Shown here piece by piece: positions 103 to 6,268 of a stretch of 64,000 bases of DNA. The stretch lies in assembly GCA_014685065.1 (NCBI GenBank), contig GCA_014685065.1_4092.1. One strand, given 5' to 3'. The stretch comes from a phage. The first letter of the stretch is position 1; every line of letters begins with the position of its first letter. The notes under the pieces are model-generated. The model was not told the origin of the DNA. It was given only the letters and a program-made list of their open reading frames with translations, and ran no database searches. The position numbers and the translations under genes are program-made.

Positions 103-131
103 TTGACATAGAAAAAGTAATTATGTATAAT
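103..131 (+). promoter_or_regulatory. sigma70-type promoter TTGACA-N17-TATAAT
   Basis: TTGACA at 103-108, 17-nt spacer, TATAAT at 126-131; upstream of first ORF. Confidence 0.5.
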
Positions 132-132
132 T

Positions 133-163
133 AGAGAACTTCATATGGAGTTCTCTTTTTTTA
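133..163 (+). terminator. hairpin plus T-run (intrinsic terminator or leader hairpin)
   Basis: AGAGAACT / AGTTCTCT stem with 7-nt loop followed by TTTTTTT. Confidence 0.45.
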
Positions 164-175
164 TAAGGTGATAAA

Positions 176-595
176 ATGTTAAATGAACGTATTAAAAATG
201 CACTACATGTATTGAATCAAGAAGTCAATTCTATTCATAAAAGTACTGACCGTTATAAAGTAATGCATGAAATCAAACAAGAATTGGAATCTATTAATAA
301 GGGAGAGTGGTGGTATCTTCAGCCCGAATATCAAACTCGTGAATTAAACGATGTTGAAAAAGAAATTGTCAAATTCATCACTACTCGTTATTGTGATACA
401 TCAGAGAATGATGTATCAGCGAACTTCAATCTTACTAAATTGGAAGTCGAAGAAAAATTCCATTTTGATTGGCTTGATTGGATTGAAATGGTAATGGAAC
501 TAGAAGAAAAATTCAATGTTGAAGTTGATGAAAAGTTCGAGAATAATGAAACTAAGCTGTATGAACTAGTAGAACATATTCAAAAAATGTTGTAA
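176..595 (+). CDS. hypothetical protein with acyl-carrier-protein-like C-terminal helix motif (DWLDWIEMVMELEEKF), attachment Ser replaced by Trp
   Basis: ORF 139 aa, RBS AAGGTG; motif resembles ACP [16 protein letters not shown] from memory. Confidence 0.4.
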   Translation: MLNERIKNALHVLNQEVNSIHKSTDRYKVMHEIKQELESINKGEWWYLQPEYQTRELNDVEKEIVKFITTRYCDTSENDVSANFNLTKLEVEEKFHFDWLDWIEMVMELEEKFNVEVDEKFENNETKLYELVEHIQKML

Positions 596-648: not shown

Positions 649-1023
649 ATGAGTATGTTAGAAATAATTGTTTCAAAAATTCTTATTCCATTTTGGAAAC
701 CAATTTCTTTTGTATTATTAATTGGCGGTTCAGCTTATGCTGGTTGGGAAGCTAATACTTATTACAGTGGATATCAACAAAGCATAGAGCAACAAATAGC
801 TAAAAAAGTTGATACCGCCTTGGATAAAATGCAACAAGAAAATGCAAAAAATTACCTTGAAACTAAAAAAATCATGGAAGATAATGCTAAAGTTATTGAA
901 ACAAAGGTTCCTTTTATTGTAGAACGTGAAGTTTATAAGAATGTATGTTTAGATGAAGATGGTGTAAAAGTACTAAATGAACTAAAACAAAATTCTCAAG
1001 CAGCGAGGAATAAATTCAAATGA
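649..1023 (+). CDS. i-spanin-like protein (N-terminal TM helix plus coiled-coil rich periplasmic part)
   Basis: hydrophobic segment ILIPFWKPISFVLLIGG then charged helical region; AGGAG RBS; stop overlaps next start. Confidence 0.4.
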   Translation: MSMLEIIVSKILIPFWKPISFVLLIGGSAYAGWEANTYYSGYQQSIEQQIAKKVDTALDKMQQENAKNYLETKKIMEDNAKVIETKVPFIVEREVYKNVCLDEDGVKVLNELKQNSQAARNKFK

Positions 1024-1328
1024 AAAAATTATTAGTTCCAATGATTTCTTTTTTAATTATAAGTGGGTGTGCCGAGCAAGTAAAACTACAATCCCCCGCA
1101 CCAATTAAACAAGAAATTCTGTTAGAAAGATGTGATGATGATACACCTCTACCACAAAAAATTATGATTGACAAAAATGGTTTTAAAGGTTATGATGGTG
1201 CAGAAATTCTTAAAGTACTTACTCGTTGGGATGCAGTATACAATGAATGTGCTTTAAAACATGACGCATTGATTAAAACTATTCGTGATTTACAAGGTAA
1301 AGATATTAAAATCAATATCAAGGAATAA
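1020..1328 (+). CDS. o-spanin-like lipoprotein
   Basis: signal peptide with lipobox LIISGC, ATGA overlap with upstream TM protein. Confidence 0.45.
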   Translation: MKKLLVPMISFLIISGCAEQVKLQSPAPIKQEILLERCDDDTPLPQKIMIDKNGFKGYDGAEILKVLTRWDAVYNECALKHDALIKTIRDLQGKDIKINIKE

Positions 1329-1329
1329 A

Positions 1330-1941
1330 ATGAACAAATATCATGTTTACTATACGACTAAATTATCACTTCTTGAAGAATTAAATCAACGAAGTACTAA
1401 GATGAAACGCTACACTTTAAATGGAATTACTTTTAGGTATTTCCCACAAAAAGTTCTTACATTTATTAAGAATCCAAAATGCGTGGCATGTGGGATTGAA
1501 GCCACTGAAGTACGCATTGAACGTTCATTTTGTTCTGATCCAGTATATGGTAAACCACATTTAAATATATATGCTGTATGTGGTCTTTATGAAGTGTTGA
1601 TGACAGTTGATCATAATCATCTGGCATCTAAGGGTGGACCTGATTTAGAGTCAAACTTTAATACTATGTGCTCCAGATGTAATCAACTACGTTCGAATAA
1701 AACTGAAACAGTTGATGAGTTTCTTGAGAAAGTTAAAGGTCGTAATCTTCTCCAAGAACATATGAATAATTTCTTTAATGTACAAAAAAAGAAAAATAAC
1801 ATTGACAAGTCGAAACTACTAGAAGAACGTAGGTTACGTCAAGAATTATGGGAAACTGATCATCTATGGCATGTTCGAGAGTTTGGTCGTCATATGAAAG
1901 CTTTGAAAAAAGAACAAAAGAAATTGAATAAACATGATTGA
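1330..1941 (+). CDS. HNH endonuclease
   Basis: CVAC ... DHNH ... N ... CSRCN zinc-finger/HNH motif; ATG at 1330 preferred over track start 1285. Confidence 0.6.
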   Translation: MNKYHVYYTTKLSLLEELNQRSTKMKRYTLNGITFRYFPQKVLTFIKNPKCVACGIEATEVRIERSFCSDPVYGKPHLNIYAVCGLYEVLMTVDHNHLASKGGPDLESNFNTMCSRCNQLRSNKTETVDEFLEKVKGRNLLQEHMNNFFNVQKKKNNIDKSKLLEERRLRQELWETDHLWHVREFGRHMKALKKEQKKLNKHD

Positions 1942-4640: not shown

Positions 4641-4670
4641 GGAGAGTCTTTTTGACTCTCCTTTTCTTTT
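4641..4670 (+). terminator. intrinsic terminator
   Basis: GGAGAGTC ttttt GACTCTCC then TTTTCTTTT. Confidence 0.7.
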
Positions 4671-4681
4671 GGAGAAATAAT

Positions 4682-5314
4682 ATGAAATCGCATGAATTAG
4701 CAAAATTACTACTGTCTCAACCGAATCTAGACATTTATCATTATGATGCAGAGAGTGACTTGCATTATCAGAATTTTGATAATAGATTAATGGTTACACC
4801 ATCTGGTATTTTCACCACAGTAAAAACCACATTAGATTATGAAAATGTACTTACTCCATACCATACACCACTCTTGGGTCACGTCCAAATTTTCTTTAAG
4901 GATGGTACTATTACTCCAAAATTGGAGGGTTCACATATCCAAACTGTTCTTAACTTAGAATATGGGTTGGTATTTAACATTCCTTATGAAAAGCCAATTA
5001 TTTTATTAGGTAAAAATCAATCAACACAATTCACTAATCAACATGCTGTTTGTTATACATCCGATGATATTGATTTCATTTCAGTACTGACAGAATATGA
5101 TCCTAATACTTGGCATGAAACATGGGAAAATATGTCATATGATGAAGCAATTGAATGTGGTAAAAATTTAGCCAAAATGTTATTTCCACCGAAAAAAGAA
5201 CTTTCACAAGAACAAAATGAATCATTTTCTAAAGATTTTCCTGATTCTGAATTCAATGTTAAAGCATCAACTACCAAAATTGGTGAATTTCTAAATGAAA
5301 ATCAAAAAGATTAA
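4682..5314 (+). CDS. hypothetical protein, paralog family B
   Basis: GGAG RBS; N-terminus HELAKLLLSQPNLDIYHYD similar to 5684-6268 KDLAALLMQNPEMEVYHEH. Confidence 0.55.
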   Translation: MKSHELAKLLLSQPNLDIYHYDAESDLHYQNFDNRLMVTPSGIFTTVKTTLDYENVLTPYHTPLLGHVQIFFKDGTITPKLEGSHIQTVLNLEYGLVFNIPYEKPIILLGKNQSTQFTNQHAVCYTSDDIDFISVLTEYDPNTWHETWENMSYDEAIECGKNLAKMLFPPKKELSQEQNESFSKDFPDSEFNVKASTTKIGEFLNENQKD

Positions 5315-5687
5315 ATTCCACCAGCATTGTTCTATACATGTCTGTGATGATTGTGGTATACAAATGAGTGATATTTATACAGTTTCCTGTAAAGGTTTCA
5401 AATTCACTCATGGTGAACCTGCTTACTGTTATGGCACAGAAGAAGGTGATATCGAGATAGTACTGAAAGAATTGTTCCAGTACTTGCAAAGTGTCGGTCA
5501 TGATGTTACAATACCCACATATTATGAAGATGATTATGATGCACATGTGGAAGAAAATACATATTATAATCAATTCGTTTATGGTAATGGTTTTATCACA
5601 TACCTACATGAGAATGGTATTGAGGTAAAAACTAAGTACACCAGTGATGATTATGATGATGATAATTCTATGGAGATTGAAGATTGA
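5295..5687 (+). CDS. hypothetical protein (Cys-rich N-terminus, acidic C-terminus)
   Basis: ORF 130 aa. Confidence 0.45.
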   Translation: MKIKKIKFHQHCSIHVCDDCGIQMSDIYTVSCKGFKFTHGEPAYCYGTEEGDIEIVLKELFQYLQSVGHDVTIPTYYEDDYDAHVEENTYYNQFVYGNGFITYLHENGIEVKTKYTSDDYDDDNSMEIED

Positions 5688-6268
5688 AAGCAAAAGACTT
5701 GGCAGCACTGTTGATGCAGAATCCTGAAATGGAAGTGTATCATGAGCACATGCACATTGATGACATGTGTGACGCTTACTATTCACCAGAAAATGTGTCT
5801 GGTATTGAAATCACCCCTAGTGGAGTATTCATCAGTACTGAACGTATTGATTATAATTCCCAGCAAGAAATCAAAACTCCACATAATAAACCTCGCATTG
5901 GTGCAATTGACCTAGTATTTCATCAGGACCGTTTGGTGGAATATGATGAAGACGATGGTACTACCCGAACTGATGTTGAGAATGTTGTTTTTCGTTTTTA
6001 TAATGCATACGAAGACCCAACTACTGGAGAAGATTTCTTCCGTGAGCTATTAGAGGATGGAGAAGTTTATGGTCAGGATGGTACGGTTTTTGTACTAGAC
6101 CCTAACTATGAGCCAGATCACAATACATGGCAATTCTATACACCAGAAGATGTAATGGAAGTTAAAGTACTTATGGATATTGACGATAAATGGAATCCTA
6201 TGTATACTTCAATGACATATGAAGAAGCCAAAGAATACTTCGTTTCTAAACTAAACATTACAAAATAA
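5684..6268 (+). CDS. hypothetical protein, paralog family B
   Basis: paralog of 4682-5314. Confidence 0.55.
   Translation: MKAKDLAALLMQNPEMEVYHEHMHIDDMCDAYYSPENVSGIEITPSGVFISTERIDYNSQQEIKTPHNKPRIGAIDLVFHQDRLVEYDEDDGTTRTDVENVVFRFYNAYEDPTTGEDFFRELLEDGEVYGQDGTVFVLDPNYEPDHNTWQFYTPEDVMEVKVLMDIDDKWNPMYTSMTYEEAKEYFVSKLNITK

Follow-up and report, generated by a model that had tools for sequence, protein, structure and literature searches.

The locus and its neighbours

The window, which refers here to the whole 64,000-nucleotide stretch of phage DNA that was analyzed, is over its first 6 kb 96-99% identical to Escherichia jumbo phages of the 121Q / PBECO4 / phAPEC6 group, namely the genus Asteriusvirus, with genomes of ~350 kb. 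Close to its start lies a gene whose product is identical to 121Q gp510 and to phAPEC6 gp313c and which we refer to as gp510 (Table 1). The protein is a member of phrog_18343, where no function is assigned (E 1.3e-61; residues 2-139 span positions 1-138 of the 138-position profile). With gp510 as query, a single place was found per record in 46 of 47 phage records, and 45 of the 47 have an uninterrupted frame (coverage of at least 80%). Record names for gp510 and its orthologues vary between 'hypothetical protein', 'acyl carrier protein', 'acpP', 'carrier domain-containing protein' and 'D-alanyl carrier protein 1'.

Table 1 Features of the gp510 locus and of the upstream open reading frame (ORF) found in relatives. 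Positions are those of the window, except in the last row.
Feature	Position	Strand	Remarks
Predicted sigma-70-type promoter, TTGACA-17 nt-TATAAT	103..131	+	12/12 consensus match, directly upstream of gp510 gene
Terminator-like hairpin and T-run	133..162	+	Hairpin 133-156, 10 bp stem
ACP-like protein CDS (gp510)	176..595	+	139 aa, 17.0 kDa, pI 4.75
N-terminal helical hairpin	176..343	+	Residues 1-56; helices 4-18 and 23-41
Arg26-Tyr27 codons	251-256	+	Near-invariant pair in hairpin
ACP four-helix domain	344..592	+	Residues 57-139; pI 4.35, net charge -13
Asp98 codon	467-469	+	AcpP Asp35 equivalent, directly 5' of helix II span
Trp99 codon (TGG)	470..472	+	At phosphopantetheine-attachment Ser position of DSL motif
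Helix II	470..514	+	Residues 99-113
Trp102 codon	479-481	+	Invariant in the branch of gp510
Rz-like inner-membrane spanin (i-spanin)	649..1023	+	phrog_1152, E 6.6e-29; apparently same transcription unit as gp510
Outer-membrane spanin lipoprotein (o-spanin)	1020..1328	+	MKKLLVPMISFLIISGC lipobox; start overlaps i-spanin stop; o-spanin annotated in Munch
HNH endonuclease gene	1330..1941	+	Followed by terminator-like hairpin 1953-1976, closing the unit
~187-aa ORF of non-Escherichia relatives	RaK2 ORF008 L002:2441-3004; CBB_162 L003:2412-2981; Munch gp180 L021:1789-2346; L016:5454-6017		

In front of gp510, the order is promoter, hairpin with T-run, ribosome-binding site and gene, and the promoter-hairpin arrangement recurs, slightly altered, in Sharanji, UE-S1, A4 and Turkey5. 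The hairpin would block read-through from the upstream tail-fibre gene and, as the promoter adjoins the hairpin, the transcript would begin within the hairpin's 5' arm. Positions 103-162 taken together resemble a compact insulator, where upstream transcription is halted and a new start is made at gp510. In Asteriusvirus, tail-fibre genes lie directly upstream of the ACP-like gene, inserted between it and the RlaP-family nucleotidyltransferase gene, while in Ecwhy_1 these two genes directly abut. The shared upstream block has an RNA-repair flavour, with Thg1-like, DUF4326, N6/N4 methyltransferase and RlaP-family nucleotidyltransferase genes (Sharanji L004:1-11926; L015-L020).

Downstream, the order of ACP-like gene, i-spanin and o-spanin was found in every relative examined, from at least five genera, although the flanking genes vary, and for Eneladusvirus the adjacency has been pointed out before (PMC7760394). 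Together with the promoter and the closing terminator, which bracket the unit, this order is what speaks for a lysis-related role, in which gp510 would work with or regulate the spanin pair. We consider such a role improbable. Gene order is kept throughout this phage group over a 12-kb block that runs from Thg1 and RlaP to thymidine kinase, such that the adjacency may be inherited order only and is, on its own, weak evidence of a role in lysis. Moreover, gp510 has neither a signal peptide nor a transmembrane segment, while spanins act in the periplasm, and in phage Munch an annotated terminator separates the ACP-like gene from the spanins. Lipoprotein acylation, furthermore, draws on phospholipid donors and is not known to use acyl-ACP. 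As to the remainder of the unit, an HNH gene directly follows the o-spanin gene in Asteriusvirus, Munch and Hallingskeid, and a DUF7325 gene takes this place in metagenomic Ser-bearing relatives. Further downstream of the spanin/HNH unit lie two tandem paralogous ORF pairs (1959-2267 with 2288-2644, and 4652-5314 with 5684-6268), whose translations have similar N-terminal sequences and to which no function is assigned.

The ACP fold and the missing attachment serine

The initial annotation likened a C-terminal peptide, corresponding to residues 95-122, to the core of acyl carrier proteins (ACPs), with Trp in place of the Ser to which phosphopantetheine is attached. Both observations held. The homology to ACPs is upheld by profiles and by the predicted fold: an AlphaFold2 model of gp510, with 27 family members as input, has a mean pLDDT of 84 and presents the four-helix ACP fold that the claim required, formed by residues 59-138, preceded by residues 1-56 as a separate helical hairpin, with a linker of lower confidence between the two. 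Single-sequence scores are low. Pfam PP-binding_2 (PF14573) gave E 0.0016 and 19.1 bits against a cut-off of 32, PF00550 gave no match in the Pfam search and NCBIfam TIGR00517 gave 24 bits against a cut-off of 70.45, such that gp510 lies below every curated ACP threshold of Pfam and NCBIfam. PHROG 'acyl carrier protein' families match gp510 with E 1e-7 and 5e-6, ACPs of the PDB match from E 9e-4, in alignments that set DWLD against DSLD, and hhalign of the gp510 family profile against E. coli AcpP gave 96.7% and E 4e-10. As far as sequence comparison goes, the evidence for ACP homology is modest by single sequences and strong by profiles. In helix II and its border, gp510 Asp98, Asp101, Glu104, Glu110, Glu111 and Phe113 are the equivalents of AcpP Asp35, Asp38, Glu41, Glu47, Glu48 and Phe50.

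Trp99 aligns on the Ser of DSL, for which the Ser-bearing relatives carry TCA, two steps apart from TGG. Residues 88-125, around the helix II N-terminus, hold no further Ser or Thr, and a conserved Ser elsewhere was also looked for, with none found in the ACP domain. With Trp99 at the attachment site, gp510 should therefore not be phosphopantetheinylated, should carry no acyl group and would have to act without the cofactor. Neither an AcpS- nor an Sfp-type phosphopantetheinyl transferase was found in any RaK2-like phage (tblastn with hand-entered sequences of E. coli AcpS and B. subtilis Sfp as queries, E <= 0.01). Because the Ser is missing and no phage transferase was found, gp510 is predicted to be absent as a holo- or acyl-protein in vivo. 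A second, canonical ACP was searched for by tblastn with E. coli AcpP, which matched no Escherichia jumbo phage, although this search is insensitive and missed the gp510 locus as well. We found no publication on the loss of Ser in these phage ACP-like proteins.

One could still imagine a working carrier with a non-canonical attachment residue or another cofactor, since Ser23 is present (Ser or Thr in 38 of 39 tabulated family sequences, Cys in one), as are Ser76 and Ser81. None of the three, however, lies at the helix II N-terminus or in a D-S-L context, and none could thus be retained as an alternative attachment Ser; Ser23 is, moreover, outside the ACP domain. A Ser-to-Thr change at the attachment site blocks the modification of E. 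coli ACP, and with no transferase found in these phages, we regard this explanation as extremely improbable. In terms of classification, gp510 is ACP-like in its fold and helix II but stands outside the acyl carrier proteins, as it lacks the defining Ser and stays below the curated score thresholds. Names such as 'acpP', 'acyl carrier protein' and 'D-alanyl carrier protein' are functionally wrong for the Trp form, the sequence of which cannot support a carrier role. The identical Ser-less protein is labelled 'acpP: acyl carrier protein' in Sharanji and 'acyl carrier protein' in phAPEC6, and the fEgEco12 orthologue, which is 72.7% identical and probably Trp-bearing too, is labelled 'D-alanyl carrier protein 1'.

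The N-terminal hairpin had no Pfam, PHROG or PDB match outside its own family. It is the most constrained part of gp510, with dN/dS of 0.07-0.20 as compared to 0.15-0.35 for the ACP domain. Arg26 is found in 37 of 39 family sequences and Tyr27 in 33, with Phe in five others. A likeness of this pair to the LYR motif was considered and dropped, because the position after Tyr27 is not conserved as a basic residue. In Erwinia phage Hallingskeid, the place of the ACP-like gene is taken by a 204-aa ORF (L022:2353-2967) without a recognizable ACP helix II, which ends in '...QRYNLFDAIAKHIENIRKDN', similar to the N-terminal hairpin motif of the family, and which may be a rearranged or domain-swapped relative.

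A family with two branches

For this analysis, we defined an N-terminally extended ACP-like family, comprising proteins of 120-155 aa with a hairpin that carries Arg26-Tyr27 and a C-terminal ACP domain. Word-indexed and exhaustive profile searches yielded ~50 full-length members, between 122 and 154 aa long, which stem without exception from RaK2-like Enterobacterales jumbo phages or from metagenomic contigs that share this gene order. gp510 shows both the architecture and the position of the family, as it is found just upstream of the i-spanin/o-spanin pair in the RlaP-to-thymidine-kinase block. In a neighbour-joining tree, the family splits in two. Branch A comprises the GAP32, CBB, Eneladusvirus and Munch-like proteins, while branch B comprises those of Asteriusvirus, including gp510, Turkey5/JNE01, RaK2/K64-1 and several metagenomic lineages. 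The two differ at the attachment site, in helix III and at Trp102, and share the acidic residues of helix II (Table 2).

Table 2 Residues and matches in the two branches of the family. Residue counts are for 24 sequences of branch A and 15 lineage representatives of branch B.
Feature	Branch A	Branch B
Attachment site	LDSLD, Ser 23/24	S 5, D 3, W 2, T/N/R/E/K 1 each
Helix III, Asp56 equivalent	Asp 21/24	Not conserved
Helix III, Glu60 equivalent	Glu or Asp 19/24	Not conserved
Trp102	Residue varies	Invariant 15/15
Helix II Asp98, Asp101, Glu104, Glu110	Invariant or nearly so	Invariant or nearly so
Pfam PP-binding	Matches	No precomputed hit

Asp56 and Glu60 of helix III are common to branch A and E. 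coli AcpP and were lost in branch B, where the branch-specific invariant residues Trp102, Glu16 and Leu10 are unlike AcpP. Taken together, the changes at the attachment site, in helix III and at Trp102 indicate a coordinated shift of branch B away from the hallmarks of a carrier, and not a single accident. For reference, Ser is absent in only ~4% of 166 other small ACP-like matches from the same searches, although this sample is biased, as the query profile itself contains non-Ser members. A4 and UE-S1, two other E. coli phages, encode orthologues that are 65-70% identical to gp510 and keep DSL. Such orthologues might be modified by the host AcpS, and being non-acylatable is therefore not a conserved requirement.

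Selection and origin of the Trp form

The Trp form is under purifying selection, with dN/dS of ~0.2. For the 121Q-type and Ecwhy_1-type proteins, both Trp-bearing and 72% identical, dN/dS is 0.21 at dS 0.78. The Ser-bearing pair UE-S1/A4 gave 0.26, in a range like that of the Trp-bearing pair, and values within Asteriusvirus are 0.17-0.26 at dS 0.7-1.3. The two halves of the gene group differently. By nucleotide distance, the N-terminal half of 121Q pairs with that of UE-S1 (0.11) and that of Ecwhy_1 with that of A4 (0.10), while for the ACP domains, it is the two Trp-bearers that pair (0.20 vs 0.29-0.32). The gene is therefore a mosaic, shaped by intragenic recombination. The Trp-bearing ACP domain appears to have had a single origin, and the Ser and Trp alleles appear to have been exchanged by recombination among co-circulating coliphages.

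These values bear on another explanation for the missing Ser, namely that carrier function was lost and that the ORF is now a decaying relic, drifting without function. The hypervariable attachment site of branch B, the lost acidic residues of helix III and scores under every curated ACP threshold could all be read in this manner. However, the dN/dS values and the near-universally intact frame make a relic unlikely, and the invariant helix II residues and Trp102, the confident AlphaFold2 model and the retained promoter and ribosome-binding site all argue against it as well. We thus disfavour decay and assign it only a slim chance, though one somewhat better than that of an unconventional carrier.

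Possible partners and role

Given the above, gp510 very probably has a cofactor-independent, protein-binding role, as judged from its sequence. What it would bind is considered in the following, starting with partners encoded by the phage. In RaK2, CBB, GAP32, Eneladusvirus, Yersinia and Salmonella (Munch) phages and metagenomic relatives, the stop of a ~187-aa ORF overlaps the start of the ACP-like gene, and judging from this overlap, the ACP-like gene is translationally coupled to this upstream phage ORF in most genera, which hints at a phage partner. The ORF is 55-64% identical between genera, far above the conservation of the ACP-like protein. Its invariant residues, His90-x-Asp92 ... His158 ... 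Arg169, are like the triad of 2-oxoglutarate/Fe(II) oxygenases and two records annotate it as 'oxidoreductase', although the oxygenase-like pattern had no Pfam or PDB sequence match. Its product may have been the ancestral partner of the carrier protein. However, tblastn found the RaK2 ORF008 family in no Escherichia phage, and this family was thus ruled out as the upstream partner of gp510.

Data on virions have to be considered as well. The virion proteome of phAPEC6, with 62 proteins, does not contain gp313c, which is identical to gp510, while gp314c is a virion tail fibre (PMC7247149). We thus did not classify gp510 as a virion component. In contrast, the ACP-like orthologue of Eneladusvirus was detected by LC-MS/MS of virions (PMC7760394). 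As the same virion list also includes lysis and nucleotide-metabolism proteins (PMC7760394), carry-over of the orthologue is likely.

These data bear on the main rival of a host-directed role, namely that gp510, instead of being a decoy for the host, serves a phage protein as adaptor or chaperone, with the ACP-derived domain and the hairpin binding this partner. Candidates would be, for example, the product of the oxidoreductase-like ORF upstream in other genera, a component of the tail fibres or hairs, or a protein of the virion. Apart from the gene overlap and the Eneladusvirus detection, this explanation can draw on the position of the Asteriusvirus gene directly after tail-fibre genes, one of whose products is the phAPEC6 virion tail fibre, and on the branch-specific invariants that AcpP does not share. 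Nonetheless, the ACP-like gene persists under selection in the Escherichia phages, from which the upstream ORF family is missing, the identical protein is outside the phAPEC6 virion, the Eneladusvirus detection is probably carry-over and the terminator and separate sigma-70 promoter would uncouple gp510 from the tail-fibre gene. We hence consider an adaptor role rather unlikely, although it is clearly more probable than a role in lysis.

As to partners encoded by the host, the initial annotation had proposed a non-acylatable ACP mimic that would titrate ACP-interacting host proteins. This proposal stands in part: gp510 does have a true ACP-fold domain, its Ser is replaced and the protein is under purifying selection. 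A mere copy of host ACP is, however, not the whole story, in view of the orthologues that keep DSL, the lost helix III acidic residues, Trp102 and a hairpin unlike anything in AcpP. A decoy of host ACP partners is accordingly still plausible, although weakened by the Ser-bearing close relatives and by the features absent from AcpP. In particular, as the hairpin and Trp102 have no AcpP counterpart, they point to a partner other than the standard AcpP clients, and the lack of conservation in branch B of the helix III residues common to branch A and AcpP likewise argues against docking on host enzymes.

With these reservations, we tentatively describe gp510 as a 'pseudo-carrier', apparently descended from a phage ACP, of which it has kept both the four-helix fold and an acidic helix II. 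For its specific mode of action, we suggest, as a putative and at best equally tentative proposal, non-productive docking on the ACP-binding site of a host enzyme. gp510 would be a small acidic docking module, in which helix II, with Asp98, Asp101, Glu104 and Glu110, and Trp99 and Trp102, both exposed, would contact the basic ACP-docking patch of the partner with no substrate delivered, while the conserved hairpin could supply a second contact or self-association. The likeliest partner class would be a host enzyme that normally docks AcpP, which is the weakest step of the proposal, and gp510 would act as a non-productive competitor produced early in infection. Docking on a host enzyme is favoured here because the acidic helix II is kept, the promoter is of an early type, the protein is absent from virions and precedents exist: apo-ACP inhibits glycerol-3-phosphate acyltransferase and halts E. 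coli growth (review, PMC3896788), and a preprint gives a computational prediction of a phage ACP docking on host FabZ. SpoT is reported not to bind apo-ACP (PMC3896788), which removes one popular candidate target.

A more detailed version of host docking can be drawn, but it is doubtful, scarcely more probable than a role in lysis. Trp99 and Trp102 would here form a hydrophobic 'plug' at the point where the pantetheine arm leaves an ACP, helix II would dock on PlsB, FabZ, LpxA/D or AcpS, and the indole would enter the arm-binding tunnel, while the Asp or Glu found at this position in sister lineages would mimic the charge that the phosphodiester gives to holo-ACP. If this were true, gp510 would be a natural protein, evolved in a phage, that inhibits lipid or envelope synthesis in bacteria.

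Comparison with known systems

E. coli AcpP (TIGR00517 / PF00550) shares with gp510 the four-helix fold, the D-x-L-D-x-x-E-x-x-M-x-L-E-E-x-F pattern of helix II and a strong acidity. The two are, however, only ~26% identical, with gp510 scoring 19-24 bits where the cut-offs are 32-70, and gp510 differs in having no attachment Ser, a helix III that is not conserved and an additional N-terminal extension of 56 residues. If the partner of gp510 is a client of host AcpP, the phage would supply, ready for use, a protein that inhibits an essential pathway, one well studied as an antibacterial target.

For a decoy, the precedent is obligate apo-ACP, a cofactor-free ACP fold that is active through binding, as it inhibits the sn-glycerol-3-phosphate acyltransferase PlsB (PMC3896788). 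That inhibition reflects the artificial over-production of the host's own protein, whereas gp510 is a naturally selected, Ser-less phage gene with extra features.

ACPs that serve as structural subunits, in mitochondrial complex I, NFS1-ISD11-ACP, the Ycf2-FtsHi motor and trypanosome mt-SAF32, are among the structural neighbours of gp510 and use the ACP fold as a protein-protein scaffold and not as a shuttle; mt-SAF32, for example, is an assembly factor of the mitoribosome. In the well-studied structural ACPs, the acyl-phosphopantetheine arm is inserted into a LYR-motif partner, for which the Ser is needed. gp510 is unlike them in that the Ser is absent. If its partner is a phage protein, gp510 would represent a metabolic cofactor protein turned viral adaptor.

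Many large phages have genes annotated as encoding ACPs, and we know of none for which a role has been demonstrated. The closest to gp510 are those of the GAP32/CBB/Eneladusvirus type, such as CBB_163 and the ACP of Serratia phage BF, which are annotated as 'acyl carrier protein', have PF00550 hits and are homologous to gp510 (profile E 1e-26 to 1e-37). They share with it the Arg-Tyr hairpin and C-terminal ACP domain, a length of 130-150 aa and the place upstream of the spanin pair. They, however, carry LDSLD and an acidic helix III and match Pfam, while gp510 has Trp at the Ser site, none of these features and the branch-specific Trp102. The family can thus be considered a natural experiment, in which branch A holds the hallmarks of a carrier while branch B has repeatedly dropped the Ser and yet stays selected, and the contrast between the branches sets what the ACP fold does without its cofactor apart from carriage.
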